Below are positions 5,857 through 60,100 of a DNA stretch of 64,000 bases, in pieces (the first letter of the stretch is position 1; each line of letters starts with the position of its first letter). The DNA is taken from NCBI GenBank assembly GCA_026025795.1, contig JAPEUG010000041.1, positions 1 to 64,000 on the forward strand, read 5' to 3'. This DNA is from Thelocarpon superellum (lineage: Eukaryota). Position numbers and translations under genes: made by a program. The notes below the pieces were generated by a model. It saw nothing but the letters and a program-made list of their open reading frames with translations, was not told where the DNA came from and did not search any database.

Positions 5857-7608
5857 CTATGTAGTGCCTGATTGGTGCCGGACGAGAAGCAGAAGGTCCT
5901 TGACCTTGCCCCAACGCTTCTTAAGAGTCTGTACGCCTCCTCCATGCCGGTCCGGTCGATCGGTGTCATCACGCTCCTCTCCCGCCAGTGATAGCGAATA
6001 TGGCGGCGTCCCCGGTTCCACGAAGAACTGCCGACCGTCGGCGCTGGGGTCGGCCTCGAGCGTACCCTCGATCGGGATCGGGGTGCGGACCGGCGCCTTG
6101 TCATCTGCTTGGTCGCTCTCGTCACCATCCGCGATAGTGGGCGGATAAACCACCTGGCTCACGCGTCGGCCAACACGTGGGCGGTGGACCACAGCTGGCC
6201 CAAAGGCGCTGGTCCGCCGTGGCGGGTTCGCCAGCTTCGGGATCGTGCGCAGGTTGGCGTTGCCGTCGCGTAGCGGCGCCTCAGATGCATGGCCCGACGC
6301 GCCACTCGATCGCCGCGACCGTCCGCTTGACTGGCGGGCCGAGGACGCGAGACTTGGAGCGTCAAGGCTCAGCGCGCGGGTGTGTTTGAGGTCTGGTAGC
6401 GGCATGGACACCGAGCGGCGCCCACTCGCCGGCTGCACCACCGCTGAGACGCTGGCCGCATGGACTGACCGCCAATCGTCGTACTTGAAATTCTCCGACC
6501 AACCTTCGCGGAAGGCCACCCAGATTCCCGTGATCAGGATCAGCGTGCGCAGCGCATCGTCCATCGGACGTCGTAGCGGCTGAGGCACCTCGACGAAGGG
6601 GCTAGCAAAGGGGTCCACGCTCGGGGAGGTTGGGGATTCTGCCGTGGTGGCAGGTGAGGCCTCCGGGTAGTAGTCCACCACGTCAATGGTGCTGCGTGTC
6701 ATGGTGGCGATGATCGGGTGGCGGCGCGAGGCCGGGTTGATGATGCTGAAGCCTAGACGGCCCTGTTCTTTGGCCGCTCCCGGTACCTTTTCTACCTTAT
6801 GCGGCCGGGGATACACGGCGGGTGAGCGCGGCACCCAACGGACGGTGGTGCGCACCCCATGCTCCCCGACCGCCACGAATTGGTAGCCGCCCGTGGCGAG
6901 CGACGTGGCTTCCCATAGCGGTCCATCGCTCAGACAGATCTCCGCCTTGGCCTGCAGGTGGCCCTCGGAGCGCAGCGGACAGATGGTGGCCACCACATGT
7001 CGAGATTCCTCTCCGTCCTCTTCGGCCTGGTCGACCGCGTTGGCCTGCGCACAGTACTCCTCACTGTCCACCACTACCAGGTCATTCGGACCGAGACCAT
7101 CCTTGCCCCGGAAGATTTTGGGAAATGTCCGTGCGAGCTTGGGTGCGAAGATGGTCGAGGGTAAGACGTCGAGGGTGGGATTGGGCCGGCCGGCGGAGGA
7201 GAGCCGCTGTAGCTGCAGCAAGAGCCGGGGTCGGATGTGGAGACGCTGACGGTGGATGACAGAAGGTGGAGGATGGGCGAGCTGAAAGGACGTGCGAGAC
7301 CGAGTGGGCGACTTTCGCACTGATACGTCCGTCGTCGACGAGCCCGTACCTGCGACGGAGGCCGTCCGTGGCGCCATGCCGTTGCTGCTCCCCTCGGTTT
7401 CATGGTCTGCGAACGGCATCGTCGCCGCAGGAGCGGCGTCCGCGCCGAAGGACTCGTCCACGCTCAGCTCCGCCGCCGGCCATGAGACGGGTCGGGGAAG
7501 CGATGGGCGTGCATAGGCGCCACTGGGTCGGGGACTGGAGCGCGGCGAGGAATATTCGTGACGATGGGCCGCGGCCACATGTGCGGGCATGCCGAGCGTG
7601 AAGAACAT
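5857..7608 (-). CDS. Hypothetical protein (~580 aa), single exon; start ATG uncertain (7608 or 7590)
   Basis: Long ORF with a globular-looking core (SFQLAHPPP..RPRLLLQLQ..LDVLPS; FSIINPASRRHPIIATM; LILITGIWVAFREGW) that resembles an uncharacterised Pezizomycotina family from memory. No function recognised. Confidence 0.7.
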   Translation of the reverse strand: MFFTLGMPAHVAAAHRHEYSSPRSSPRPSGAYARPSLPRPVSWPAAELSVDESFGADAAPAATMPFADHETEGSSNGMAPRTASVAGTGSSTTDVSVRKSPTRSRTSFQLAHPPPSVIHRQRLHIRPRLLLQLQRLSSAGRPNPTLDVLPSTIFAPKLARTFPKIFRGKDGLGPNDLVVVDSEEYCAQANAVDQAEEDGEESRHVVATICPLRSEGHLQAKAEICLSDGPLWEATSLATGGYQFVAVGEHGVRTTVRWVPRSPAVYPRPHKVEKVPGAAKEQGRLGFSIINPASRRHPIIATMTRSTIDVVDYYPEASPATTAESPTSPSVDPFASPFVEVPQPLRRPMDDALRTLILITGIWVAFREGWSENFKYDDWRSVHAASVSAVVQPASGRRSVSMPLPDLKHTRALSLDAPSLASSARQSSGRSRRSSGASGHASEAPLRDGNANLRTIPKLANPPRRTSAFGPAVVHRPRVGRRVSQVVYPPTIADGDESDQADDKAPVRTPIPIEGTLEADPSADGRQFFVEPGTPPYSLSLAGEERDDTDRPDRHGGGVQTLKKRWGKVKDLLLLVRHQSGTT

Positions 7609-9440
7609 GGCGTGGGACAAAAGAGGGCGAGGAAGGGGCGGAAGGGCAGGCGGAAGGTAACAAGCGGAGGCAGTCTGTTCCGCCCACGAGAAAAAGAAGT
7701 CGAAGGTCCCACCGTGAGCAATCGACTCAGATCGGGTTGCGGGTAAGTCTGGGGTCCGTTGTCCGTCCACCGTCAACCCTGGTGGGGGCCAACGCTGGCG
7801 GGAAGGAAAGGTCTGTTACGACCAGGCCAATGGTCGGGCGAGGGATAATGCCAGGGAAGAAGTCGTGAGGCAAGCACCACTCATGGACGCAGCCGCGGCC
7901 ACGGCGGGCTGCCGGCCACAATTCGTGTAACACGCTCGGCCTCGGGGCCAACAACGGAGCCGAGCGACCAGAGCCGCCGTGGCATGCACCGATGATGCAC
8001 GATGAGTGCTGACTCGGATCGCTTGGAAGATGTGGGGAGCAGCTGGATCACGGTAAGGATTACTCCGAACGCGTGATCATCCGCGGAGCCTCGTCGCCTC
8101 ACCAGCGTCCGCCGTAATTACAGATGCGAGGCATTTCAGAGGTCGTCGGCGGATCGCTGTCAGCGTGTGAGGCTCAGCGTCGCCATCATTGCCAGCTTTA
8201 GAACGGTCCGACGGGGAAATAAGAGGTGGAAAAGCAGAGAGCTACTGGGGAATCGCCTGTCAGGCTGGTGGCTTGCTCAAAGGCCGCTGCGGAGCCACAG
8301 CTGGGCCGCCTCCGTCCGACCCTCCTCGTCGACGGTCATTACGAGGTGCCTTTCGACGCCATTACGAGGGGTACGGACACGAAACGGCCTCGTCCTTCGG
8401 CTGACAGTCAGGCCGGTCGCAGCACTCGACCATCGGCTCGGCGCCGGGCACTGGAACGCGATTGGGCCGACCGCTGGAAGTGGTTAAGTTCTGCTGACTC
8501 ACGCGTTAGCGGCTGCCCAGACGCGGTAAGGCTGACCCCCCCTTCAGCGCGACCAAGGTTCTCCGCGTCCTCTAGTGCCTCATGCTTTGGACCCAATCTC
8601 ACGCAGCGATGACACGAGGCGAGGGGGCCATTTCTTGATGCTGGGAACACGGCAGCTCCAGCTCCCCGGAGGAGTATTGAGTAACCCAGCTGTACAAGTT
8701 ACCGAGGACGAGTTCGGCCAGAAAGAAGCCTCTCAGCTCGCGGGCCTGGGCAAGAATGTGTTACAGGCCGGCCATTCAGACCTTTGGTAACACGGATCAC
8801 GACTGCGGAGTACTTGCATGTACTGGTCACGCTGCACTCCTCTACGAGTTCTTCGCTTGGTGACCCGCCACCTACAAGAAGGGGTCTTCCCACCAAGACG
8901 GCCCAGGTTGGGTAGTCGTGTGCCTGCAAGGCGCACGACGCAAGGGTGGATGAAATGGAGCATTCACCAGTCGCTACGATATTGTTCGACTCCTGGCGTT
9001 TAATCTAGAGAGACTTCTGTATAAGCATTTCCCTCTTGCTGGAGATGGGCTCCATCCTTGTTCCTCCGCGTCTGCAGAGCATAGCTCGTAGGAGTTCGTG
9101 CGAAAGCCGAGCACATCTCGCTTGTTCCTGAGCAGGCGGGATGAACCAGTCGCGTCGAAATGGTCTTCGGTACTTTGTCCAGCCATCTCCGTTTCGACGG
9201 TAGGCGAAAGGAAGGCGAAACGCGTATTTCGTTACGGAACTCAGGAGAAAGAGAGTAGGCGTCGTGCATGATCGTCGGAACCCACCCTCGCCCACGCGAG
9301 ATAAGCCACATCGGAGCAAGCCACGACGAACCGAGGTTAGTGGCCGCGGCCAACGCTCAGGGTCTTGGCCGCGAAGGACTGGAGTCGAAGAAAGAACGAG
9401 AGATGTGGCGGTGACGTCGGTCTCCTGCATCAGGCCAAGC

Positions 9441-10969
9441 ATGTCGCGGTCGGGGCCCCAGTGGGACCTCCGCACCCGTCCAGTCGTGACCCTCGTCGGC
9501 TGCTTCATTCTGTGGAAGTCGCTGCTGCTCCTTGTGGCCTACGCGGCTCCCGGGTCGGGCTACGATTCCTCCACGACATTGGTCTCCCACGCCAGGCCGC
9601 CAGCGGAGGAGGTCGAACTGGCTCATTCTACCTGCTGTGGCTTGACGACCTTGGGAGAGAAGCTTACCCGATGGGACGCCATCTATTTCATCGCCGTCGC
9701 ACAACGCGGCTATCGGTATGAGCAGGAATGGGCATTTGGATGGGGCTTTACCACGATGCTGGCCATACTCTCGCGAGGTATGTGGGCCTCTACCGCTAAT
9801 GGAGACAACTGCTGATCAGAAAGGCTGGCGTCTGGCCCGCGTCAAGCTCTGGTCCGGGCAGGAGGCGCTTGACGGGACCGAGGCAGCGATCGTGGTTGGC
9901 ATCTGGCTCGCCCATGCTGCACACTTGGTCTCCGTGCTGCTTCTCTATAAGCTCTCTCAGGTGGTGATTGAGCCCTCGCTGGGCCCGCTCGTGCCGCTGG
10001 TCGCCGCCCTGCTTCACATCATCTCGCCCGCGGGCGTATTCTTGTCTGCCCCATATACCGAATCTCTCTATTCTTGCCTGAGCTTCCTTGGCTACCTCTT
10101 CTACGCGTGGAGCCTCCAGGCGCATCAAGCCCGGCAAGGGCTTCGCCGAGACGTAAGCGTTCTCATGGCGGGGCTGATATTTGGCCTGGCGACGACGATC
10201 CGCAGCAATGGTCTGTTTAACGGCCTTCCTTTACTCTACGACGCCCTTTGGATCTTGTGGCGTGTGGCGCATCTCCAGTCCGTTGAGTTCGCCCGGCTGG
10301 CGACGCTGGGCGTGAGTGGTGCGCTCGTGGCCGCGGGCTTTGTAGTACCGCAATGGCTTGCGTACGACGTATACTGCATCGGCTGGTCCCAGACATCAGC
10401 GTCATTTCCGCCCTGGTGCACCAGGCTTCTTCCGAGCATCTACACGTGGGTGCAGGATCATTACTGGTAAGCAGCTCGTCGACCCGGGTGCGAGGCGTGG
10501 AGATGCTCATGCGACTTGAGGCCACAGGCACGTGGGATTCCTCCGATACTGGACCATGGGTAATCTTCCGTTGTTTGTGCTGGCTGCGCCCATGCTGGCC
10601 ATCATGTCAGTTGTGGCGATGCGAGGCATCCAGGGTACGCTGTTGAGCGCAATGGCAACATCATGGGATTTACCAAGCTCCACGGGAAGCCCCGCTCGTC
10701 GCGTCTCCCGCGATATCCTCCGACGCTTATCCATGCCGCAGCTCCTGGTGGCTGCGTTGGCGCTCACGAGCTTCCACGTCCAGGTCATCACTCGCTTGTC
10801 CTCGGGCTATCCGGTCTGGTATTGGTGGCTGGCTTCCGCTGTGTGCACCCGGCAGCGCATCAAGGTTGGCGGGTGGGAGTGGGATATTTCGAAATGGACG
10901 GTGCGGTGGATGGTCATGTATGCGGTCGTCCAAGGAGGCCTCTTTGCTTCATTTCTTCCTCCGGCTTAA
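9441..10969 (+). CDS. GPI18: GPI mannosyltransferase 2 (PIG-V/Gpi18); exons 9441-9777, 9824-10466, 10528-10969
   Basis: Motifs LTRWDAIYF..A.RGY.YEQEWAF, SPAGVFLSAPYTESL, RSNG, PSIY.WVQ.HYW|HVGFLRYW, HVQVITRLSSGYP and C-terminal FLPPA; several hydrophobic segments. Confidence 0.93.
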
Positions 10970-11804
10970 ATGATGTAATACGCCACCATACGACCACCAG
11001 GGTAGCATTGTCGGTGCGAGGGCGGTGGCACCGCTGATGCTTCGCGACTGTGCACCTTAGCGTGAGACGTCATGTCTGCGCGTGCTGGCGCTGCCTAGTG
11101 GTGGCGGGCCCCGCCAGGGTTCATGACTGCCAGGCTCCCGGACATGACGAATGCAAAGGACAAGTTGATCGCCCGTGAGCTCAGGGAGAGGGAGATGATT
11201 AGAGCTCGAGATCGCCCGCCCTGGCGCTCGTTCGATCGGGCACTGGTTCATCTGCATGGGAGAACTTGGCCCCACGACGTCGTCCAGGTTGACGTTCCTC
11301 TCGCTACTGCGTTCCATTTGATCAATAAGCACCGCGCACGTAGATGTCGATGCACCGCCAGCCTCGTCGCCCCCCCGCCCACCGACGACAGAAGGCACGA
11401 GCCGTGAGATCCGCGGACCAATCCACGGCACAATTTCTAGACGCGACCAAAGTGGCATAGAGCCGTGGCTTGGAGACAGTCTAGGCTCGTGGGGCATGGG
11501 ATTTCGTCCCTCCTAGGCACCGAAGCTGCGTCGGCGGCCGAGTCCCCGGACCAAGCTCCATTGTCCGGCGTCCAACGTCCGTTCTCTCGAAGCGGCGGCG
11601 ACAGACCCGTTAGCGATAAGACGACCTCCTTATATCCATTGATTGATCGTTTGGAGACCCTCACACTCTCTTTCCTCCCACATCTCCGAACCTCGCTCCG
11701 TGCCATGAGAAGGGAGCGGTGCACCACTAGCCACTCCTCCATCCTCTCGCCACCCCTCTCCGCCCTCCACGTCGCCCGCCGGCCCTCCGGTCTGTCACAA
11801 CGCT

Positions 11805-31183: not shown

Positions 31184-32620
31184 CCATGTCGGTGGATGAG
31201 ATGAGTGATGATCCTGCACAGAAGGGGGGTGACGTGCGATGGGATGGTGCATCACCCCGTGTACAATATGGGTGTCATGTTTCGCTTCTCCGGCAGGAGC
31301 GCCTGGCTGAGGCCGGGTCAGATTATGTCGCCCGAATCGCCTCTCGGCTTGGGCGGTCCCTAGGATAGATGTACGTTCGGACGGGTCCTCTACACGGATG
31401 GATGTTGGAACATGATCCAAGCCACGGCCCCATGCTACGAGCAGTGCCATGCAGTGCGATGTACAAGCAGGATACGCATCGAAAGGGCCCGAACGCCCAT
31501 TCTCATATCTCCGCCCCGTCACAGAAATCGCTTCTCAACCTAGCAGGGCGTCAGTGCGTCAACGAGGCGATCCCCTCCCCTCCCCTCCCCTCCCACTCAC
31601 CTTCCAGGGATTGTTGAGCTCGAAGCCCTCGGGTGCGTATGGGCTATCCGATTGGCCTCTCAACGAGCCGGTCAATCGGCGGTCCCGTTCCATCACTACC
31701 GACGGGTCAGCCCACGAAGTCGGAGATGGGAGCGGTGTCTTCGTACTTTGCTGCTGGAAGTCAGTCTTTGATGATGCTGATCGAGGTGACCGTCACTTAC
31801 TCTGTCCCACTGATCGATCGAATGCCGTCCACGTTTGCCTCCGTTCTGCCAGTGCCGAAGCCAGGACATGCCGGCTCCGGTGACGGCGAACATCTGTAGA
31901 AGGCCATCAGTCTCCGGCGCGATCGGCCGATCGGGAACGACCACTGACCGACACCATGATCCCATAGGGGAGCAATGCTTCAAAGGGGACGCCCATGATG
32001 AAGGTCTGGGTGCGGTGCCTGGCTGAGGATCAGGAATCGATCAGTCACGACCCTCGATCGTGGTGCTGAGGGAGACGGCGGAGGAATCGGGTCGTTGCCG
32101 TCTTACGTAAGCGGACGAGAATCGTTTGACGGCTCTTGTTGCAAGGGGCCACGAGATGCAGATGACCCTGAGCGCTCTTCAACCTCCTTTGGTGCCGGTT
32201 TAATTGCTTCTTACGCGTCGCGTAGTATGCCCGCTGCCAAAGAGTCGTGAAAAGTGCCTTGTCGTGTTACTTGAAGACGGTGGCGTCGCGCAACAGCTAC
32301 AGCAGCCGCGATCCGTTGACGACTCGAACCAGACAAAATCCCACTCCAAGTCACGTCAACCTTGACGCGCGTCTGCAGCAGACCCTCGAGCTTCAAACAC
32401 GCCATTCTCCTCCTTCCATCCGCCGTTGATACGCCTGGTCTCTCGCCACCTGGTCCATCCTCGATCACTGCCATACCCACGCGCTGTAGCGGAGATGGGC
32501 TCCAGCTTCGTTGAGTGAACGACCGCGTCTGTCCGTGAGGAGACCCTTGATCGTTACTGCGCCGGCCTCGACGCGCGCGGAAGCCGGCGCCCCGGGGTGG
32601 CAGTCGGATACTCCAGCGTC

Positions 32621-36266
<3,646 letters not shown>

Positions 36267-48681: not shown

Positions 48682-50211
48682 TCAGTCCTCAAACTTGATC
48701 CCCTTCCGACCGTCCACGTCAATTGCACCCCCCCGATAACTGCCCCGCTTCTTCTTGTTCTTCTCCTTGGTGAAGCCCTTGCCCCTGGTCACGATGAGGT
48801 CCTGGTGCGCGCGCTCCGCGTAGTCGTACGGGACGTAGGCGTTGGACGCGAGGCGTTCGTCGACTCTGATGTCGTCGGGGATTCGACTGAAGGGCTTATT
48901 GGTGCTTTTGTCCTTGGTGCTGGATCTCTTCGTTTTGGTCGCCGCCGAGGTCGGATCAGGCCTAGGCGCGATGTTCGTGGCGCTGCTGGACTTGCTCGGC
49001 TTATCCGCTTTCGCCTTTTTGATCGGTTTGCTGCCGTTGGAGACGGGCGCGGGGGAGTGAGACCGTTTTCGTTTGAGCGCTGGGGCGGGAATGGATCCTT
49101 TCGAGGGCGTCGCGTCCGAGTTCGAGGCAGAGTCCGATGGGCTGCTTGCCGACGATGACGAGACGGATGAGCTGGCGGAGGAATGGATCTTGTGGCCGGG
49201 GTTCTTGGAGATTCTCTCGCCCACCAAAGTGGCGCTGGAATCGGTGGATCCGTTCACCGATGGGACTGGGTTGGCTTCCGACTTCTTCCTTTTCTTCGTC
49301 GGATCGAGAGCAAGCGCTCGGAGGGACTGTTTAGAGATGGTAGATGTAGATGTGCTCGGCGCTTGCTTCTCTTTGCCGTTTGCCACTTTCTTCACCACGA
49401 CGAACGTCTCTTCTTGCGACGTCTCATCGTCGGACGAAGAATCGGACGAGGAGGCGGCGCGTGTGCCGTCCGTCGTGGGCTTCGGCTTGGTTTTCGATGG
49501 GGAGGCTTTCTTGCTCTTGGACTCCTCCTCGTCATCGGCATCGCTATCGCTGGAGACGGAGGAGGCTGACGGCAGGGGCTTGGAGGCTGTCGAGGTGCAG
49601 GGCTTGCTGACCGTCGGCGCTTGGATCGCTTTGGAAGCCGACTTCTTCGCTGGCGGTGCATCGTCCATGCTCACATGGCCGTCGTCACTGCTGCTGTCAC
49701 TGTCGCCACCGCTGCTGCTGCTGCTGCTGGTCTCGTCTCCCTTTGTCTCCGCAGAGGTGGTTGGGTTGACGGGGGCGCCTCCATCCGCGTCGCTGCTCGT
49801 GGCGTCGGCATCCTGCTCGTCCTGCTCATCTTGCCATTCTTGGTGCCATTCCTTGTATATCCGCACCAGACCCGGCAGTCCCTTGGGGAGTTTCTTGCCG
49901 AGCTCGTCCGTCCAGCCGTCTAACCGGCTGCGTCCCTGTCGTTCCACGGTAAATAGCCGGCAGGTGCCGTTAAATCCATATTCGGTGAGGAAGACGGCAA
50001 TTAGGTTGAGGAGCTGAGGAGGAGGTGAGGGCTTCTCAGGGACGCCGAGGGCACGGCGCTTGAGGAAGTTGAGGGCTTTCTCTCGCTCTTGTTTGGCGGT
50101 GCGGGCTTCTTTGGGATCGACGGTCTTGGGATTGAGAGCCGGGTTGTCCTCGTCTGGTGGAAACAGCCAGGCTGGCTGAGGTTTCAGCGGCGCGTTCTTC
50201 TTCTTCGGCAT
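48682..50211 (-). CDS. SRP40: Nucleolar Srp40/Nopp140-like protein (~509 aa)
   Basis: LisH-like LLNLIAVFLTEYGFNGTCRLF, alternating Ser/acidic and Lys/Pro tracts, and the SRP40_C domain PFSRIP...SNAY..YDYAERAHQDLIVTRGKGFTKEKNKKKRGSYRGGAID...IKFED. Confidence 0.9.
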   Translation of the reverse strand: MPKKKNAPLKPQPAWLFPPDEDNPALNPKTVDPKEARTAKQEREKALNFLKRRALGVPEKPSPPPQLLNLIAVFLTEYGFNGTCRLFTVERQGRSRLDGWTDELGKKLPKGLPGLVRIYKEWHQEWQDEQDEQDADATSSDADGGAPVNPTTSAETKGDETSSSSSSGGDSDSSSDDGHVSMDDAPPAKKSASKAIQAPTVSKPCTSTASKPLPSASSVSSDSDADDEEESKSKKASPSKTKPKPTTDGTRAASSSDSSSDDETSQEETFVVVKKVANGKEKQAPSTSTSTISKQSLRALALDPTKKRKKSEANPVPSVNGSTDSSATLVGERISKNPGHKIHSSASSSVSSSSASSPSDSASNSDATPSKGSIPAPALKRKRSHSPAPVSNGSKPIKKAKADKPSKSSSATNIAPRPDPTSAATKTKRSSTKDKSTNKPFSRIPDDIRVDERLASNAYVPYDYAERAHQDLIVTRGKGFTKEKNKKKRGSYRGGAIDVDGRKGIKFED

Positions 50212-50767
50212 CGTAAACGTGGCGATGAAGAGCGCCGGTGAGGAGTGGAGGTGGAGGAGGTGGAGGAGGTGGAGGAGGTGGAGGTGAGCGGTGGAGAAGT
50301 CGATTGTGGGCCACGAGTGGAGCTCGAGGTGAGGATTTCCCACGGAATCGACAAAAAAGATCTTAGCGTCGTGTGCGCACGGAAGCGGTGGAGGAAGCCG
50401 TGGACGACTATGACCCGAAGCGGGAAGGCGTGAAGGGGAAACTCTTTGGCGAGACAGCCGTCGACGGCTCGACAATGGGACGTGATAGGTCACGTGCACC
50501 CCTGGCCAGCATCTTCGCTGCTGCATTGCTGTCGCTGTCGCTGTCGCTGCCGCTGTCGAGTGATGGCGTCAACGCGGCATAAGAGAATGACGACGTGACG
50601 TGCACTTCCCCTGATCCATTTGTCGCGCATCATGAGCATGGTCGCAGACGGAATGCATGTGGTCTGATCCCTCGTCGACGAGCTCACCCGACCGCTACAT
50701 GTGCGACTCATGCCCGAGCTCGGGCGCTCTCCCCTTCTGGCCTTGAGCGCGCGCCTCGTCTGGCACC

Positions 50768-53006
50768 ATGTCAGCCAAGACACGGGCCGAGAAGTTTGAG
50801 GATGAGAAACGACGGATCGTGGAGAGTTGCTTTGCCAAACAGGACGAAGATGGCTCATGTAAGGCCGAGGCCGCTCGACGCGGGTGAGAATCGTCTCATG
50901 TTGACCACCCTACAGTACTGGAGTCGTACATCACCCACGTTCGCATCGTCGAGGACGCGGCATACCCATCGACCCCGGCACCTCCCGAGTCACCTCCCGA
51001 GAATAAGAAGCCTCGCATCATCATCGTTGCGGTGCGCAAGTCGGGCCGGGTGCGGATGCACAAGGCGCGAGAGAACAACAATGGCAGCTTCTCCATCGGC
51101 AAGACATGGGTGCTCGACGACCTGTCGGCCATCCAATCCTTCACCGGGCCCGCGTCGCTCAAGCGTGAGGAAGAGCAGCAACGGCAATGGGCGGGCGGGG
51201 CCGGGTTTGTGGTAACGATCTCCAAGTCCTACTACTGGCAGGCGGGCACGTCGAAAGAGAAGGATTTCTTCATCGCGAGTCTGGTGAAGATCTACAAGAA
51301 ATACACGGCGGGGAAGGCGCCGGAGTTGCTCGGGTTTGACGCGCGCGAGCGGGAGCAATTGCTCGGACCACAGGCCGCGCGAGGGCCCACACCCGACGCC
51401 GTGCCGCGGGAGGTGCCGCGGGATATCAACACAAGGGATGCGGCCATCTCGCCCGCAGCACCACCGCTCCGGTCACCATACCTGCCGGTGGAAGAGCCGC
51501 GTCCGAGCATCGACTCGCGAACGGGCAGTCTCACGGGGAGTGTCCCGTCCAGTCTCCCCAGCAATGGCATCTCGGCGGCGCGGGGGTATGGACGGGATTC
51601 GTCCGACGGACCCAAGGCGCCCAGCGATGGACGACCGTCACGCGACGAAACGTGGATGGCACCCCGCAAGCCGGAGTTTCCCAAGCCCGACTATGTCAAG
51701 TCGGAATACGCGAAGCCGGAGTATGCTAAGCCAGCCCTTCCCCCGCCCGACCATCCCAAGGCGGACTTGGCCAAGACGGAGGCCCCTAGCGAGAGCAAGG
51801 AGAGCGTCACGTCGCCATCGTCGGTGGATTCTCGAGACCGAGAGGACGAAGACCACCGGCCAGGACTCGGGCCGATGATCAAGCAAAAGTCGAGGCGAGA
51901 CATTGGCGCGGCATTCCGCAAGGCCGCCACGGCGTACACGGCCTTCCGACCACGACCGGGCGGGGCGGGGGAGAAGCTACGGGAGGAGGGACTCAAGGAG
52001 CCCGACGGCATGACGGCCGTGGTACCAGCGCCATCCCCGCTCTCGCGCGGCGTCAGCCAAGATGGCAGCGTTAGCGGGGCCAAGCGCATCAGCGACGCGA
52101 CCGAGCCAGTCCCAGAAGTGATGGTGACGGGGGCCATGTCACCGCCGCCGCGGCCCGCACACCGACCCTATTCCTCGCGCGAGCGAAACGAGGCCAGTCG
52201 GCCGTCGACCCCACGCACCAGCCTACCCAAGGCCGGGATCGTGGCCCGCACGCCGCCACCGGCTGCCGCCGCCGCGGCTGCGATCCAGCAACGAAAGAAG
52301 GCACAGGCGGAGGAAACGGCACGCTACGTCGCGCACCTCGGCATCGACCCGCATCTACTCGGCGACAAAGCCACGGACATTGACTGGATCCTGAGTGATT
52401 TCGGATGTAGCGGGGGAGACGTGAAGAGCGGACGAGAAGGCACGGGCGGAAAAGAAGGAGAGATGCGCGGCTCGCCATCACGACGGCCCACTCCCCAGAG
52501 CGGGTCGACGGCCTTTCCGGCCCCGCTGGCCTCGCGGTTGAAGAAGCCCGAGGAGCTCGAGGCGGAGCTGAAGCGAGAGCTGGGACGAGTGGAGGCCGGG
52601 AGCTGGCTGGGCCTTGCGTCTGCGTCGGCGGCGTCGTCATCGTCTCCCTCGCGGCAATCCTCATCGCAGGCGCCGCAGCAATTCGAGGAAAAAGACGAGC
52701 GAGTGGCGGTGGTGGAGCGGCTGCTTGATCAGGCCATGGCGGAGTGTGACGAGTTGCAGGGACTACTGACGCTCTACAGCGTTGAGCTGAGCGTAAGTTC
52801 CTCCCCTCCAGCTGTGCAGGACGAGCAACGAGCGAGGAGAAGAGAAGAGTGAAGACGCTAAGATGAAACCCATATGGCAGACGCTCAACGACGACATCTC
52901 CTACATCGAAGCACAATCCGGCGGGCTGCAGGTCCAAACGGCGAACCAGAAACTACTCCAGTTGGAACTGCAGACACGGTTGCATTCGCTCAATGTGCCG
53001 AGATGA
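50768..53006 (+). CDS. SEC3: Exocyst Sec3-derived protein truncated after the coiled coil (~697 aa); exons 50768-50858, 50916-52792, 52881-53006
   Basis: RAEKFEDEKRRIVESCF..|LLESYITHVRIVED..KKPRIIIVAVRKSGRVRMHKARENNNGSFSIGKTWVLDDL (Sec3 PIP2-binding PH domain); ECDELQGLLTLYSVELS|TLNDDISYIEAQSGGLQVQTANQKLL; then TGA TGA. Confidence 0.85.
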
Positions 53007-53240
53007 TGATCACTCCGCCATCTCTCCTCCTTCTCTTTCCCTGCTCTTTCTCTTTCCCGCTTTCCCCTGCCATGGATGGGCGGATGGTCAGATGGTCAGA
53101 TGGGTGGAACTAGGGCTGGGCAGTTGCATGCAAGGGAAACGGACATGGGAAGGGAACCGGCGGGCAGGCGGGCGCTTCTGACTCATATACGCCTTGTGTA
53201 TCAATACCTCTTCTACCCAAGTCTTCCACTTCTTCCCCTG

Positions 53241-53352
53241 CTTCCTCTCCATCGTCTTCTTCTTCCTCTCCATCGTCTTCTTCTTCCTCTCCATCGTCTT
53301 CTTCTTCCTCTCCATCGTCTTCTTCTTCCTCTCCATCGTCTTCTTCTTCCTC
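53241..53352 (+). repeat. 21-bp tandem repeat CTTCCTCTCCATCGTCTTCTT, ~5 copies
   Basis: Perfect tandem units between the convergent sec3 and nuo51 ends. Confidence 0.95.
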
Positions 53353-53547
53353 TTCTTCATCACGTCAAGTCTCGGTCAAAGGTTCCATGGAATGACCCTT
53401 TCGGCGTATGGTAAGATGCAGGCAGTAGTAGGATGGTACATGGCGCAGCGATTGATGAATCGGTAGAAAACGCCGCTTCTACCGCTCTTACTCCCCTCCC
53501 TTTCCCCCTCCTTGTTCTCCTCGTCGTCTCCATCCCTGCGTACTCGT

Positions 53548-55218
53548 CTACTGACCGGGTGATATCAGCAACCCCTTCTTCGACGCATCGTGCTCCCATC
53601 CGCCTGCGAGTGCGGTCCCCCCTTGCGCAGCTGCGTAACTCTTCATCCGCGCTTCGAGCTCGGGTCGGAAGTGGCGGATCAGGCCTTGGATTGGCCATGC
53701 GAAGGCTTCGCCCAGTGCTGTCATGTCCCCACCATCTCATCAGTATCGTGCAGGTTTCAGGATGCACCTAGGGATGGAGGGATGCGTGAGTGTGCAAAGG
53801 GGAATGTCCTCACCACAAATCGTATGTCCCTCGACCTGCTTCGTCAATTCTTGCAGCATGTCAATCTCCCGTTCGCGCGCCTGACCCCGCTCGAAGCGCT
53901 TCATCACTTGCTCCGTCCACTTGCTGCCCTCGCGACACGGCGTGCATTGGCCGCAGCTCTCGTGGCGGTAGAAGGTCGACAGGCGACTGATGCAGCGGAC
54001 CACGTCCGCGCTCTTGTCCATGACGATCACGGCCGCCGTGCCCAGACCAGACTGCGAGTCTTTGAGGGCGTCGAAATCCATCAGCTGCTCGTCGCAGATG
54101 CTCTTGGGCAGGATGGGCGTGGAGGAACCGCCGGGGATGATGGCCTGCAGGTTGTCCCACCCCCCTCGTACTCCGCCACAGTGTCGGTCGATGAGCTCGC
54201 GCAGGGGAATGCTCATCTCTTCCTCCACCGTGCACGGGTGATTGACGTGGCCCGAGATGCAAAAGAGCTTCGTGCCCGAGTTGCGTTCGCGGCCGAACGA
54301 GGCAAACCAGCCCCCTCCCCGGCGACAGATGGTCGGTGCCACGGCGATCGTTTCCACGTTGGCCACCGTCGACGGACATCCAAAGAGACCGACGGCGGCG
54401 GGGAAGGGCGGCTTGAGGCGGGGCTTGCCGGGTTTGCCCTCGAGCGATTCGATCAGTGACGTTTCCTCGCCGCAGATATACGCCTGTCATGTCTGTCAGC
54501 GAGCCCTCCGTCATCAGATCAGCAGACCCACCCCCATGCCCCGGTGGATGAAGACATCAAAGTCGTAGCCGCTCCCGCACGCATTCTGCCCGATCAAGCC
54601 GTCTTGGTAGGCCTCTTGGATGGCGCGTTGCAGCACCGTGGTCTCGTGGTAGAACTCGCCCCGGATGTAGATGTAGGCCGCGCTACAGTTCATGGCCCGT
54701 CCCGCCACCAGACAGCCCTCGACCAGCTTGTGTGGGTCCTTGCGCATGATCTCGCGGTCCTTGCACGTGCCGGGCTCGCCCTCGTCGGCATTGACCACGA
54801 GGTAGCGGGGGGTGGTGCCCTGCTCCCAGCCCTTGGGGTTCATGAACGACCACTTCATCCCGGCGGGAAAGCCCGCGCCGCCTCGTCCGCGCAGGCCCGA
54901 GGCCTTGATCTCCGAGATGATCCAATCATGTCCCTTGGCGAGGATCTCCTTGGTCTGGTGCCAATCGCCGTATTTCTTGGCGCTCTTCAGGTCGGTGCCG
55001 TGGTGACCGTACAGGTTCTGGAAGATGCGGTCTTGGTCCTTGAGGCCGCCAAAGTGGGTGCGTTTCGGCGGTCCATCTTGCACCGTGGCGAGGGATCGGG
55101 TGGCCGTCGGCGACCGGCGCGAGGAAGTGCCCGCGACCGAGGTGGAGGGGAGGACGCGAAGGGGACCGGCGGTCAGTGTCCGCGACGCAGTCGACACCGT
55201 CTGAGGACGGGCAATCAT
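53548..55218 (-). CDS. nuo51: NADH:ubiquinone oxidoreductase 51 kDa subunit (NDUFV1/NuoF); exons 55218-54532, 54483-53814, 53717-53548
   Basis: Mitochondrial presequence, [67 protein letters not shown]-terminal LISPGQ. Confidence 0.96.
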
Positions 55219-55404
55219 CGTGATGAGGTGCCGCGGGACACGTCAGGTGTGATGCAATACACCTCGAATCGCCCGGGAGTCGAGCCGTCGATCTTCGATG
55301 GTGAGGACGAGCGTGGAGGTCGATCCTCATCATCGACTTTGTGGAACAGTTGATTGGTGGCGTCGTCGGCTAGCAATGCACTAGGCGTAGGACTGTGTTA
55401 GAAG

Positions 55405-55947
55405 TAGTAGCTGCACGGCCCCGCCACGTGACCTAGCACAGTAGTGGAGCAGCTCAGGCCCCGGGGACTGAGACTGCACAGTCATTCGACAGGCCTATCG
55501 CTGCTGGCCTCCCTATCCGACCACGCGAGCGTCGTGAGTGGAATAGTAGCTGCGCGGCCCCAGCACGTGACTTAGCATGGTAGTGGAGCAGCGCTGGCCC
55601 CGGGGACTACGACCCTACAATCAATCAATGGGCCTATCGCTGCTGGTCCTCCTACCCGGTCGCGCGAGCGCGGTAACACGTCGCAACCGACTGCACACTA
55701 CGGGAGACGAGGTGGACCACGCTGACCTCCGTCAACAAATCTTCTCGAAGAGGCTGGCGACGAGTGGAGACTGAGCTAACGAACAATCAGGTACAACCAG
55801 CGCAAGCCGAGGTCCATTGACTTGGTGGGCGACTATGCCGGACAAGAGCTCTTCTTAGTCCTTCTACCCGATCGCGCGAGCGCTGTGACACGTCACAACC
55901 GACTGCAGACTACGGGAGACGAGGTGGACCACGCTGACCTCCGTCAA
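55405..55947. repeat. Nested diverged segmental duplications in the nuo51/dynactin p27 divergent promoter
   Basis: 55405-55531 resembles 55544-55670 (139-nt period); 55646-55735 resembles 55858-55947 (last 39 nt identical). Confidence 0.9.
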
Positions 55948-56081
55948 GCTCCCTCCCCGCCGCGAAAGTCCCGGTGCTCGTCCTCCGAGAGTACTCGTAC
56001 AGCCGAAGGCGTCCTCGCGTGACGGGAGAGCTCGTCGTAGTGTGAGAGCGGAAAGGACAGATGGAAAGAGAATGAGCAGCA

Positions 56082-57103: not shown

Positions 57104-60100
57104 TCATTTGCCACCTCCGCCGCGAACCCGCTTCCCCGTGTTCCCTGTATCACCGCTCTCCTCCTGGCCATCTTCACGCGGCCGTTTGTGACCGCCCGGG
57201 ACGAACTGGCGGGCGCCGACGTTCAACCCGCCGCGTCCGGCTGGACTGTGTGGTCGGGATCCGGGTCCTGGTGGTGGCACGTTCGTCTGCACGTTGGGTG
57301 CGCTTCCTCCCCGTCCAGCGCCGCCTTGGCCGCGCCCGCGGCCGCCCGGGCCCCCTCGTGGAAGGTTGGAGCCGCCGCCTCGTGCGGTCTGGGTGGCGGG
57401 TGCGTTGGCCACGGGCGCTGGCGCTGCGGCACCGCCTCGACCACCGCGTCCACCGCGGCCGGCGGCACCGCCGCCACGCGGAATGGCCGATGGCGCCTGC
57501 CCCATGAGACTCCGGAGCGCGCCCGGCCCCGTGCCGGCGTTGGCAGCGTGCGAACCGGGGGCAGGCTTGGCCGGTAGCGTAGATGGCTTTGCGCTTGCTC
57601 CGCTTGCTCCGCTTGCCGACAGTGGAGGCACCGACGCTGGCTGGTGATTGGTCGACGGCGGCACGATCGCGTGGATTGGCGTCGGTTGGCCAAAGACACT
57701 GGCCACCGCGGCCGGGGCCGGCGCAAAGGTGGGCGTGGGCGCGGGCCCGTTCGTTGGCGGCGCAGGTACGGTGGCGGCCGGTGGCATACCCGCGGGACCG
57801 AACGGTGGCGCTGTGGCCGCCGCCGCAGGCGTGGGGACGGGCGCGGGTGCGGGTGCGGGTGCGGGCGCGGGCGCGGGCGCGGGCGGCGGCTTGGCCGCCT
57901 TGGCAATCTCCCACACCTCACCCACCGGTCGTTGCGGCGTCTCCGAGGCGGCCCGTTGCACAATCTCCACCTTGACCACCAGCGTGCGCGCCTTGCCCTC
58001 GGCCATGCTGAGCTTCACCTTCTGTCGCTGCTCCGCCATGGCAATGGCTTGCTCTTTCTCCTTCTCCGCCTTGCTCTGCGCCTCCTTGACCCTTTCCTGC
58101 GCCACCGAGTCCTGCTCCTCCCGTAGCTTCTTCGTTTGCGTCGCGATGTTGTTGCGGATGATGCTCTTCAGCGTCGCGTTGCTGCCCACCAGCTCCCGCG
58201 CCTGCGCATCCGAGAGCACCCACTGCGACACGGGAGTCTCCGACGGCTCGGCCTTGACCGCGGCCGCGGTGGCGGGAGCGGTCGTCGCCGGCTGGGAGGC
58301 GGACACGCGCGCCGTGACCCGGCCGAGCTCTTCCGCGTGCGCCGCCTGCACGCGCTGCGCCTCGGCCTGGTGGGTGGCCGTCAGCGCGTCGAGTGCGGCC
58401 TGATGCTCGGCCTCCAGCTGTTGTCGGGTCTGCTCGCGCATCTGCTCCTTGGACTTCTTCAGTTGCTCGTTCAGCTGCGTGCGCATGCTGTCCGTCTTGC
58501 GCTTGTACTGCTCCTCTGCCAGCTTGACCCGCTCCGCGTGTCGGGCCTCGAGCGTCGCCTTGATGCCCTCCACCTGCTCGAGCACCGTCTGTCGCGTCTC
58601 GTCGTCCACCGGCGTCTGATCGAGGGCCGCGCTCACGTCGGCCGAGGTCTTGAGCGTCTCCACCTCCTGCTGTGCCTGGGCAAGATCCGCGCGGAGACGC
58701 TCCAGGTGCGCCGCCGCCTCGGCGTCGTGCGTCTCGGCGGCTTGGGTATGTGACATCTGGAGTTGCTGCACTTGCGCCTGAGCCTCGGTCAATCGTCGCG
58801 CCAGATCATCCTGCGTCTTCGTTAGCGGGCGTGATCTATTCATGGTGGCAGGAGCGCTCACCCGTTCCTCTTCGACCTCGGTCAACCGAGCCTGGAGCGT
58901 GGCCAACGCCGCTTCGGCCGTGTTGGCCCGGGCCTCGGCTGCGGCCTCGGCCGCCTTGGTGTCCATGGATGGATCCATCACGACCGCGCTGACGGCGGGC
59001 GCCGCCGCGGGAGTGATTGCCGCTTCGGCCGACGGTGCGGCGGGGTCGGGCATGGCGACGTCCGCGTCGGCGGTCGGATCGCGCCCGGGGCCGGCGAGGG
59101 CCTGGTCGCGCTCGGCCTGGGCTGCGGCCAGGGCGGTGCGCAAGCTGACCAGCTCGGCCTCGAGCGAGGCCTTGTCGTTCGTCAGGGCCTGGCACTCGGC
59201 CGTCTTCTCGTTCTTGGCTTGCACCAGCGCGCGTGATCGCTCCTTGAACTGGTTCTTCATCTTCTCGCGCCCCTCGCTCCACTGGGCCGCTACCTCCTCC
59301 TGCGCCTGGCGGATCTGGTCCGGGATGGATGCGACCTGCGCCTGCAGTGGCGCCCAGGTGGCCTGCTCCGCCCGCAGCTCGTCCCGCGTCGTCTCTAATC
59401 CGGCGAGCTGCTCCTTGAGCGCCTCCATCTCGGCCGGGTCGACGCGGTCGTACTTCTGCAGGATGTGCTGGTTGCGCTGCTGGTACCGGTCGCGATCCTC
59501 CTTCAGCAGCCGCATCTCCCCCAGCTGCGTCTCCTTCTCGTTCTCCAGCGTGAGGATGGTGGCCCGCAGCGGCTCCATCTGCGCCACCAGCGCCTCCACC
59601 TCCCGGCTCTTCTCCGCCAGCGCCGCCTGCGCCTGGCGCGCCTCGTGACGCAGGGTGACGGTGCTCTCGCGGTAGAGGTTCAGCTCGTTGATCTTCTCCA
59701 CCAGCTCGCTGTGCGTCATGTTCTGGCGCTGCTCATCGGCCTGCGCGTGGCGCGTCTGATCGAGCTTGAGCCGGGTGTCGTCGAGCTGCGACTGGGTGTA
59801 GTCGAGCTGCTGCTTGAGCCGCTTGGCCTCGCGCGTCGAGAGGTCCAGCTGCACGTCGACAATGTCCTTGCTCTCGCGGATGTAGCGCACCAGCTCCCGC
59901 AGCTCCTCCGCCGACCGATCCGTCGCCACGCCCGTCGTCGGGCCCGCGGCGTCGTCGCCTTGGCCGTCGCCGTCGCCGTCGCCATCGCCATCGCCCTCGG
60001 CGTCGGGAAAAGCGGCGCGGTGCTGCTGCAACGCGCTGACCTGGCCACTGAGGTGGTCGAGCTGTTGGTGCAGCAGCTTGTTCTGCGCGTCCACGTTGTC

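Follow-up and report, generated by a model that had tools for sequence, protein, structure and literature searches.

A SEC3 orthologue whose reading frame ends at the CorEx coiled coil, with no C-terminal rod at its locus, in Thelocarpon superellum

Sec3 (EXOC1) is regarded as a core subunit of the exocyst, and its C-terminal rod packs into the octamer. In the window analysed here, a 64,000-nt stretch of assembly GCA_026025795.1 of the lichen fungus Thelocarpon superellum (contig JAPEUG010000041.1, positions 1 to 64,000), a SEC3 gene encodes the pleckstrin homology (PH) domain and the CorEx coiled coil and then stops, and the rod is absent from the locus. The interpretation favoured here, with modest confidence, is that this gene is the fungus's own SEC3 orthologue at its ancestral locus, with a reading frame that ends at the end of CorEx, a rod that has become detached, and a remainder that is selectively maintained. 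Judging from the sequence, such a rod-less SEC3 is probably real and functional, and the chances that the rod has been lost or is encoded elsewhere as a separate gene are roughly even.

The gene lies on the forward strand and comprises three exons. Exon 1 (50768-50858; 91 nt, 30 codons plus 1 nt) starts from the ATG at 50768 and equals the N-terminus of P0121, a deposited 697-aa hypothetical protein of the T. superellum metagenome-assembled genome (MAG), and the removal of intron 1 (50859-50915; 57 nt, GTAAGG...CAG) restores DEDGSLLESYITH, which is present in P0121 and homologues. Exon 2 (50916-52792; 1877 nt), over 100% of whose translation P0121 is 100% identical, carries the PH domain, a disordered linker of approximately 300 residues and the first coiled-coil helices. 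The junction formed across intron 2 (52793-52880; 88 nt, GTAAGT...CAG), YSVELS/TLNDD, agrees with every spliced homologue, and exon 3 (52881-53003; 123 nt, 41 codons) encodes the last coiled-coil helix before a double stop, TGA TGA (53004-53006 and 53007-53009), read from the sequence. Together, the spliced exons amount to 2091 nt, or 697 codons, with 0 internal stops, and both the start and the end of the printed P0121 sequence agree with the splice made by hand. The original prediction, made from the letters of this DNA, had described three in-frame exons without internal stops encoding 697 aa and ending about 15 residues after the LQVQTANQKLL motif at a double TGA; the sequence reading and the identical P0121, whose C-terminus lies 15 residues past that motif, bear this out.

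Both domains retained by the product are recognizable as those of Sec3. The Sec3-type PH domain (Sec3-PIP2_bind, PF15277) was matched in Pfam over profile positions 1-87 of 87 (E = 3.1e-29), with its core at 50999-51301 in exon 2, and residues 6-173 match the solved structures of yeast Sec3 (3HIE and 3A58; E of about 1e-32, 1.1e-32 for 3hie_A), the NKK.R and HKAREN stretches, putative sites of the basic residues that bind PI(4,5)P2, being kept in the alignment. The coiled coil characteristic of Sec3/EXOC1 (Sec3_CC, PF09763, a 133-position profile) was detected in two parts: exon 2 covers profile positions 21-59 (24.8 bits) and exon 3 positions 60-99 (45.4 bits, E = 9.5e-12), the latter alone exceeding the 27.1-bit cut-off, and PF09763 is also precomputed for P0121. 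Residues 635-690 align to residues 679-734 of yeast Sec3 in the exocyst cryo-electron microscopy entry 5YFP (chain A). In an AlphaFold model based on a 41-sequence alignment (mean predicted local distance difference test score, pLDDT, of 63), the PH region is confident (block pLDDT 82-96), residues at about 187-480 appear disordered (mostly pLDDT <50), and helices are predicted at 483-525, 575-601, 625-668 and 671-693, the final helix stopping 4 residues before the C-terminus. The last three of these helices form the region corresponding to CorEx (52547-52991, block pLDDT 65-87), which spans intron 2.

Two low-complexity insertions are located between the conserved helices, one at residues 525-568 (52391-52522, Gly/Ser/Arg-rich) and the other at residues 596-618 (52610-52678, Ser/Ala-rich). 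Both are in frame, are modelled with low confidence and are absent from Thelocarpon impressellum and Caeruleum. A retained intron was rejected as the source of the first insertion, since the candidate at 52407-52498 is 92 nt long and would shift the frame.

The rod is missing from the protein as well as from the remainder of the window. P0121 has only PF15277 and PF09763, whereas full-length matches add the C-terminal rod family PF20654. In tblastn searches with six full-length Sec3 proteins, 50747-53000 was the only part of the 64-kb window to be matched. A C-half hidden Markov model (HMM) of 671 positions, built from 59 C-half fragments and two C-halves and run unfiltered against all six-frame open reading frames (ORFs) of at least 20 aa in the window, found exon 3 only (E = 0.051), and this match is confined to the first 21 profile positions, which overlap the coiled coil. 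Downstream, the spacer between the convergent stops (53010-53547) is C+T-rich, shows no Sec3 homology and contains a perfect tandem repeat of 21 nt in 5.4 copies (53241-53353). It is followed on the reverse strand by nuo51, encoding the 51-kDa subunit of complex I (53548-55242; at least three exons, stop 53548-53550; Complex1_51K, SLBB_2 and NADH_4Fe-4S in Pfam). The SEC3 and nuo51 stops are 541 nt apart, and this interval is 65% C+T. The initial description of a PH domain plus CorEx coiled coil without a rod, followed by about 540 nt of low-complexity DNA with no room for Sec3_C before the convergent nuo51, was therefore upheld by Pfam, tblastn, the C-half HMM and the composition of the spacer. 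Two further candidates were rejected at this point: the in-frame ORF at 53010-53414 that read-through of the stops would enter has no Pfam match and no Sec3 homology, and a blastn search with 53004-53550 for a transposon at the break, against the window and the comparison loci, gave low-complexity matches only.

Tree position and a conserved locus identify the gene as the Sec3/EXOC1 orthologue. In a tree of 42 N-half rows (quick method, 750 columns, Shimodaira-Hasegawa-like approximate likelihood ratio test supports), the window SEC3 is sister to that of T. impressellum (support 95), full-length Sec3 from Caeruleum heppii is the next to join them (85), and all three belong to a clade of 6 rows that also includes Sarcosagium, Piccolia and Vezdaea (97). 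In the available text of PMC12238968, phylogenomics also groups these five genera (Thelocarpon, Caeruleum, Sarcosagium, Piccolia and Vezdaea). The window protein shares 46% identity with the 1292-aa Caeruleum Sec3 in an alignment that runs from residue 1 to residue 695, its third-last residue. Upstream of SEC3, an SRP40/Nopp140-like gene (48685-50568, reverse strand; SRP40_C, E = 7e-24) is transcribed divergently. For comparison, 66 Sec3 loci with flanks were taken from public metagenome contigs, with no close Thelocarpon relative among them; 48 of them extend 2 kb or more upstream, and 34 of these 48 have an SRP40-like gene divergently upstream of SEC3, although many of the loci probably repeat one species and do not count as independent. 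On this evidence, the locus of the short gene is the ancestral one of SEC3. On the downstream side, nuo51 lies beside SEC3 in 0 of the 66 loci, which says little because no downstream ORF family is common to more than 11 of 36 loci.

These data bear on the possibility of an extra short paralogue, an amisyn- or EXOC1L-like regulator or decoy that would exist beside an intact SEC3 elsewhere in the genome. PH-only relatives of Sec3 do occur in animals; however, a paralogue of this kind is very unlikely here, as the gene has the ancestral position of SEC3 and branches as an orthologue, no full-length Thelocarpon Sec3 appears among the best 120 of 616 longer matches, the exocyst coiled coil is kept, unlike in PH-only paralogues, and no SNARE-like motif was found in the protein by Pfam. 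A short paralogue or decoy and a recent partial duplicate had both been proposed in the original prediction, and both are disfavoured by the same three lines of evidence, namely the locus, the tree and the longer matches.

Other features of the window concern the wider neighbourhood of SEC3. About 15-19 kb upstream of SEC3 are two genes, one for a MYST-family histone acetyltransferase (PHD, zf-MYST, MOZ_SAS) and one for the MWFE subunit of complex I. Window positions 31416-36263 match positions 7596-11151 of one metagenome locus, L033, at up to 92% identity, and in L033 the MYST and MWFE genes, in the same orientation, are on the downstream side of a full-length SEC3 at a distance of 2.4-6 kb. 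This single locus hints at reshuffling near SEC3. Farther along the window, G+C reaches 0.74-0.78 at 57150-57900, compared with 0.55-0.65 in the surroundings.

The retained part of the protein is conserved to an extent similar to that in full-length relatives, each of the two Thelocarpon proteins keeping about 95% of the conserved columns. Conserved columns were defined as the 152 that are each at least 90% conserved across 34 full-length Sec3 proteins, so that the count favours the full-length rows that defined them; 144, 143 and 145 of these are kept in the short proteins of T. superellum, T. impressellum and Geoglossum simile, respectively, and 147, 145 and 144 in the full-length proteins of Caeruleum, Sarcosagium and Vezdaea. 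The T. impressellum model, a 613-aa protein encoded on a 324-kb contig, shares 48% overall identity with that of T. superellum; identity reaches 79% for the PH region and 71-83% for the segments of the coiled coil, values like those of full-length relatives among themselves. It ends 11 residues past LQVQTANQKLL, compared with 15 in T. superellum, so that a search for the same truncation in relatives, proposed at the outset, returned a protein model ending 4 residues earlier. An L689R replacement near the end of the last helix is common to both Thelocarpon proteins, and their terminal branches (0.71 and 0.60) compare with 0.45-0.89 for their clade mates. This pattern fits a truncation that would be older than the split of the two Thelocarpon species and that would since have been under purifying selection.

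Decay of the gene would predict a different pattern. Truncating a core exocyst subunit might be deleterious or inactivating, and the two low-complexity insertions specific to this lineage (at residues 525-568 and at 596-618) could be taken as signs of a decaying remnant, a young pseudogene left after rearrangement or deletion of the 3' half. However, the frame stays open for 697 codons and both introns are correctly placed, the protein retains 144 of the 152 conserved columns (143 in the sister species, where the truncation is shared although overall identity is only 48%), the branch lengths are not inflated, and the five variants found in the gene in the probable source run all fall in intron 2, with 0 exon differences listed. 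A decaying remnant is accordingly extremely improbable. These variants come from a second contig of the source sequencing run, at a depth of 52 of about 148, which carries five differences in 56 nt (52822, 52847, 52870, 52874 and 52877), and they suggest two haplotypes or strains in the source sample.

Several points weigh against a genuinely rod-less, functional SEC3, and the first of them would favour an artefact of assembly or annotation, in which the true gene continues beyond a mis-join at the microsatellite or beyond an unusual intron that was missed. The record is a MAG, and the contig is 69.9 kb long, with about 5.9 kb of it outside the window. Contigs of the source run break at the 21-nt repeat, from which other contigs exit with different flanks (loose end at 53356), so the join between the SEC3 3' flank and nuo51 rests on the deposited assembly alone; near the stop, the graph also branches at a contig boundary (52984). 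Among the sequencing runs listed, no RNA run carries the SEC3 locus. The Sec3_CC profile is matched only to position 99 of 133, its last 34 positions being absent; the tree was made by a quick method and its support of 85 is not strong; the column count has the bias stated above; and T. impressellum is known from a protein model alone, not from DNA. In budding yeast, residues 321-1336 of Sec3 are reported as the region that binds Sec5 and recruits the exocyst (PMC4230786), so function without the rod is not guaranteed, although the available text of that study maps 321-1336 as a whole and is silent on whether the coil alone suffices.

Against an artefact, the double stop lies in continuous sequence. 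One unbranched contig piece of the source run (52984-53239, 0 differences) extends from the last codons through the two stops and over 230 nt that are not Sec3. The depth of the source-run contigs is approximately 160-210 over most of 50000-55300 and mostly even, including across the junction; it is lower only at a repeat-masked bin (50201-50401) and higher at 53216-53416, which includes the tandem repeat, and at 54623-54823. A missed intron also finds little room. The sole GT in the last five codons belongs to a Val codon and would be a poor donor (GTGCCG), whereas the introns of this gene begin with GTAAGG and GTAAGT, and the intron would need more than 240 nt, compared with 57 and 88 nt for the two in SEC3. 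In 43 of the 44 metagenome loci that reach query residue 680, the C-half follows directly, at the next codon or within a few codons, with no intron (the 44th locus ends 8 nt after the match). An intron at the break point thus occurs in 0 of 43 informative loci, and no widespread intron exists there for gene callers to miss. In addition, the end of the T. impressellum model, whose contig is 324 kb long, is no more than 4 residues away from this point. Taken together, these results make an artefact unlikely.

Other reads from the source sample and from elsewhere were also compared with the locus. A low-depth form of the repeat lacking 63 nt (three units) occurs in the source run, and similar repeats occur elsewhere in the sample, as seen from contigs that leave the repeat with other flanks. 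Two moss-metagenome runs of a second study, X2 and X3, contain pieces at or near 100% identity (depth 2-5 over 50000-56000), covering 52569-52786 with 0 differences and 52073-52377 with 2; the same or a very close fungus is therefore present in those moss samples. Both runs cover none of 52814-53416 and neither confirm nor refute the junction, and a further run, X5, covers nuo51 only.

Short Sec3 proteins that end at about this place are not confined to Thelocarpon. Among the best 120 matches of similar length, 12 contain the motif in frame, and 8 of these 12 end 11-24 residues past it: the two Thelocarpon proteins, four from Geoglossomycetes (tails all of 18 residues), one from Trizodia and one from Thermomyces dupontii. 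They fall in at least three separate places of the tree. Outside the window species these are protein models only, which may be gene-model errors, and endings at the same place in unrelated lineages could mean a recurring gene-calling problem, which would favour an artefact; a common technical cause is less obvious because an intron at the break is seen in 0 of 43 loci. The T. dupontii model (P0198) has a terminal branch of 0.96, compared with 0.18-0.34 for its nearest Eurotiales neighbours, and this faster branch would fit a real change in that lineage. Repeated, independent loss or fission of the rod at the end of CorEx in filamentous ascomycetes, convergent with fission yeast, can be put forward tentatively from these models, with Thelocarpon, Geoglossomycetes with or without Trizodia, and T. 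dupontii as the candidate lineages. If such recurrent loss or fission were true, the smallest functional Sec3 would consist of the PH domain and CorEx, and nature could dispense with the rod or separate it.

If the truncation is real, the rod may still be made. A fission of SEC3 at the boundary between CorEx and rod, for example by duplication followed by complementary loss, would leave the rod to be supplied by a separate gene and to join non-covalently. Such a split, the third of the readings in the original prediction, is one form that a real truncation could take, and it predicts a second gene. The break does fall at a structural boundary, as the last helix ends at residue 693, where a Pro or Ser follows in relatives. 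The C-half itself is strongly conserved in relatives, with 50-54% identity between distant lineages (53.7% between the C-halves P0004C and P0001C), and the N-half is constrained, as the conserved-column count indicates. However, among the best 120 of 1020 matches to residues 815-1537 of the Sarcosagium protein, searched for shorter proteins, none is named Thelocarpon, Geoglossum or Trizodia, and almost all are ORF fragments. When the Caeruleum C-half was compared with cluster representatives (best 150 of 581 matches), the 12 short ones examined included none tied to Thelocarpon; in nine of them the motif is continuous with the rod, whereas the other three begin within it. This failure to tie a stand-alone C-half to Thelocarpon is weak evidence against a split, and a split gene is considered possible but doubtful.

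Under the favoured interpretation of a detached rod and a maintained remainder, the CATCHR (complexes associated with tethering that contain helical rods) rod, about 650-700 residues in relatives, would no longer be joined to the PH domain, linker and coiled coil. The remaining protein would consist of a PH domain that binds phosphatidylinositol 4,5-bisphosphate (PIP2) and Rho, a long disordered linker and a helical hairpin. As described in the available text of PMC4230786, the PH domain of yeast Sec3 is bound at the plasma membrane to PI(4,5)P2 and to GTPases of the Rho family. The short Sec3, presumably expressed, may likewise be held at the plasma membrane by its PH domain, and its retained coiled coil may insert it into exocyst subcomplex I, which in yeast it forms with Sec5, Sec6 and Sec8. 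The protein would then act as a rod-less Sec3, as the Sec3 of fission yeast appears to do.

A natural Sec3 without a rod in a filamentous ascomycete would define which part of Sec3 is truly required and would serve as a natural construct for CorEx-only assembly. If the rod is separately encoded, the locus would instead represent a clean case of a conserved machine in which a gene has split between two domains. The finding also cautions annotators against dismissing as broken predictions the short Sec3 models of several lichen-related and thermophilic fungi, which may be real. Its importance is limited in that fission yeast is already similar and the basis is one MAG without RNA data.

Compared with canonical fungal Sec3/EXOC1, as represented by Saccharomyces cerevisiae (5YFP chain A) and C. 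heppii (P0004), the window protein has the PH domain, the conserved mid patch HRPGLGPMIK... and the coiled coil in common, and the gene shares the upstream neighbour and the position of intron 2. The difference lies in the C-terminal rod (PF20654; about 670 residues in P0004), which canonical Sec3 has whole and the window protein lacks, ending where relatives read ...TISI(S/P).... Amisyn (STXBP6) and EXOC1L are short animal proteins with a Sec3-type PH domain. They are additional paralogues without the exocyst coiled coil, whereas the window gene is an orthologue at the SEC3 locus with the coiled coil; as far as its sequence goes, it does not belong to a class of PH-only proteins that are extra to a full-length Sec3.

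Shortened rods are also found in the wider tethering-complex family. In Vps51 the rod is shortened and the coiled-coil region is kept, according to the available text of PMC8290106, which represents the same kind of domain loss within CATCHR proteins as in the window protein. However, Vps51 belongs to the Golgi-associated retrograde protein complex and to another orthologous group, and it has no PH domain. In the available main texts of the literature searched, including PMC6784791, no split or rod-less Sec3 is reported in Pezizomycotina.

The closest precedent is Sec3 of Schizosaccharomyces pombe (SPAC17G8.12), which is closer than amisyn or EXOC1L and had been missed in the original prediction. 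The available text of PMC3386988 describes a PH domain, predicted unstructured sequence and a possible coiled coil at the extreme C-terminus, and states that the C-terminal region by which budding-yeast Sec3 binds Sec5 is not conserved; in the same account, deletion of sec3 is lethal on standard medium, and the protein localizes and acts like an exocyst subunit. The rod-less architecture of PH domain, disorder and C-terminal coil is that of the window protein, a likeness drawn from description and not from an alignment. S. pombe belongs to Taphrinomycotina and its Sec3 diverges outside the PH domain; its coil may correspond to CorEx. Unlike it, the Thelocarpon protein remains highly Sec3-like, its truncation is recently derived and its nearest relatives in the tree are full-length, and its likeness to S. 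pombe Sec3 would therefore be convergent. Collectively, a rod-less Sec3 architecture is already known from fission yeast, and Thelocarpon adds a variant of it.

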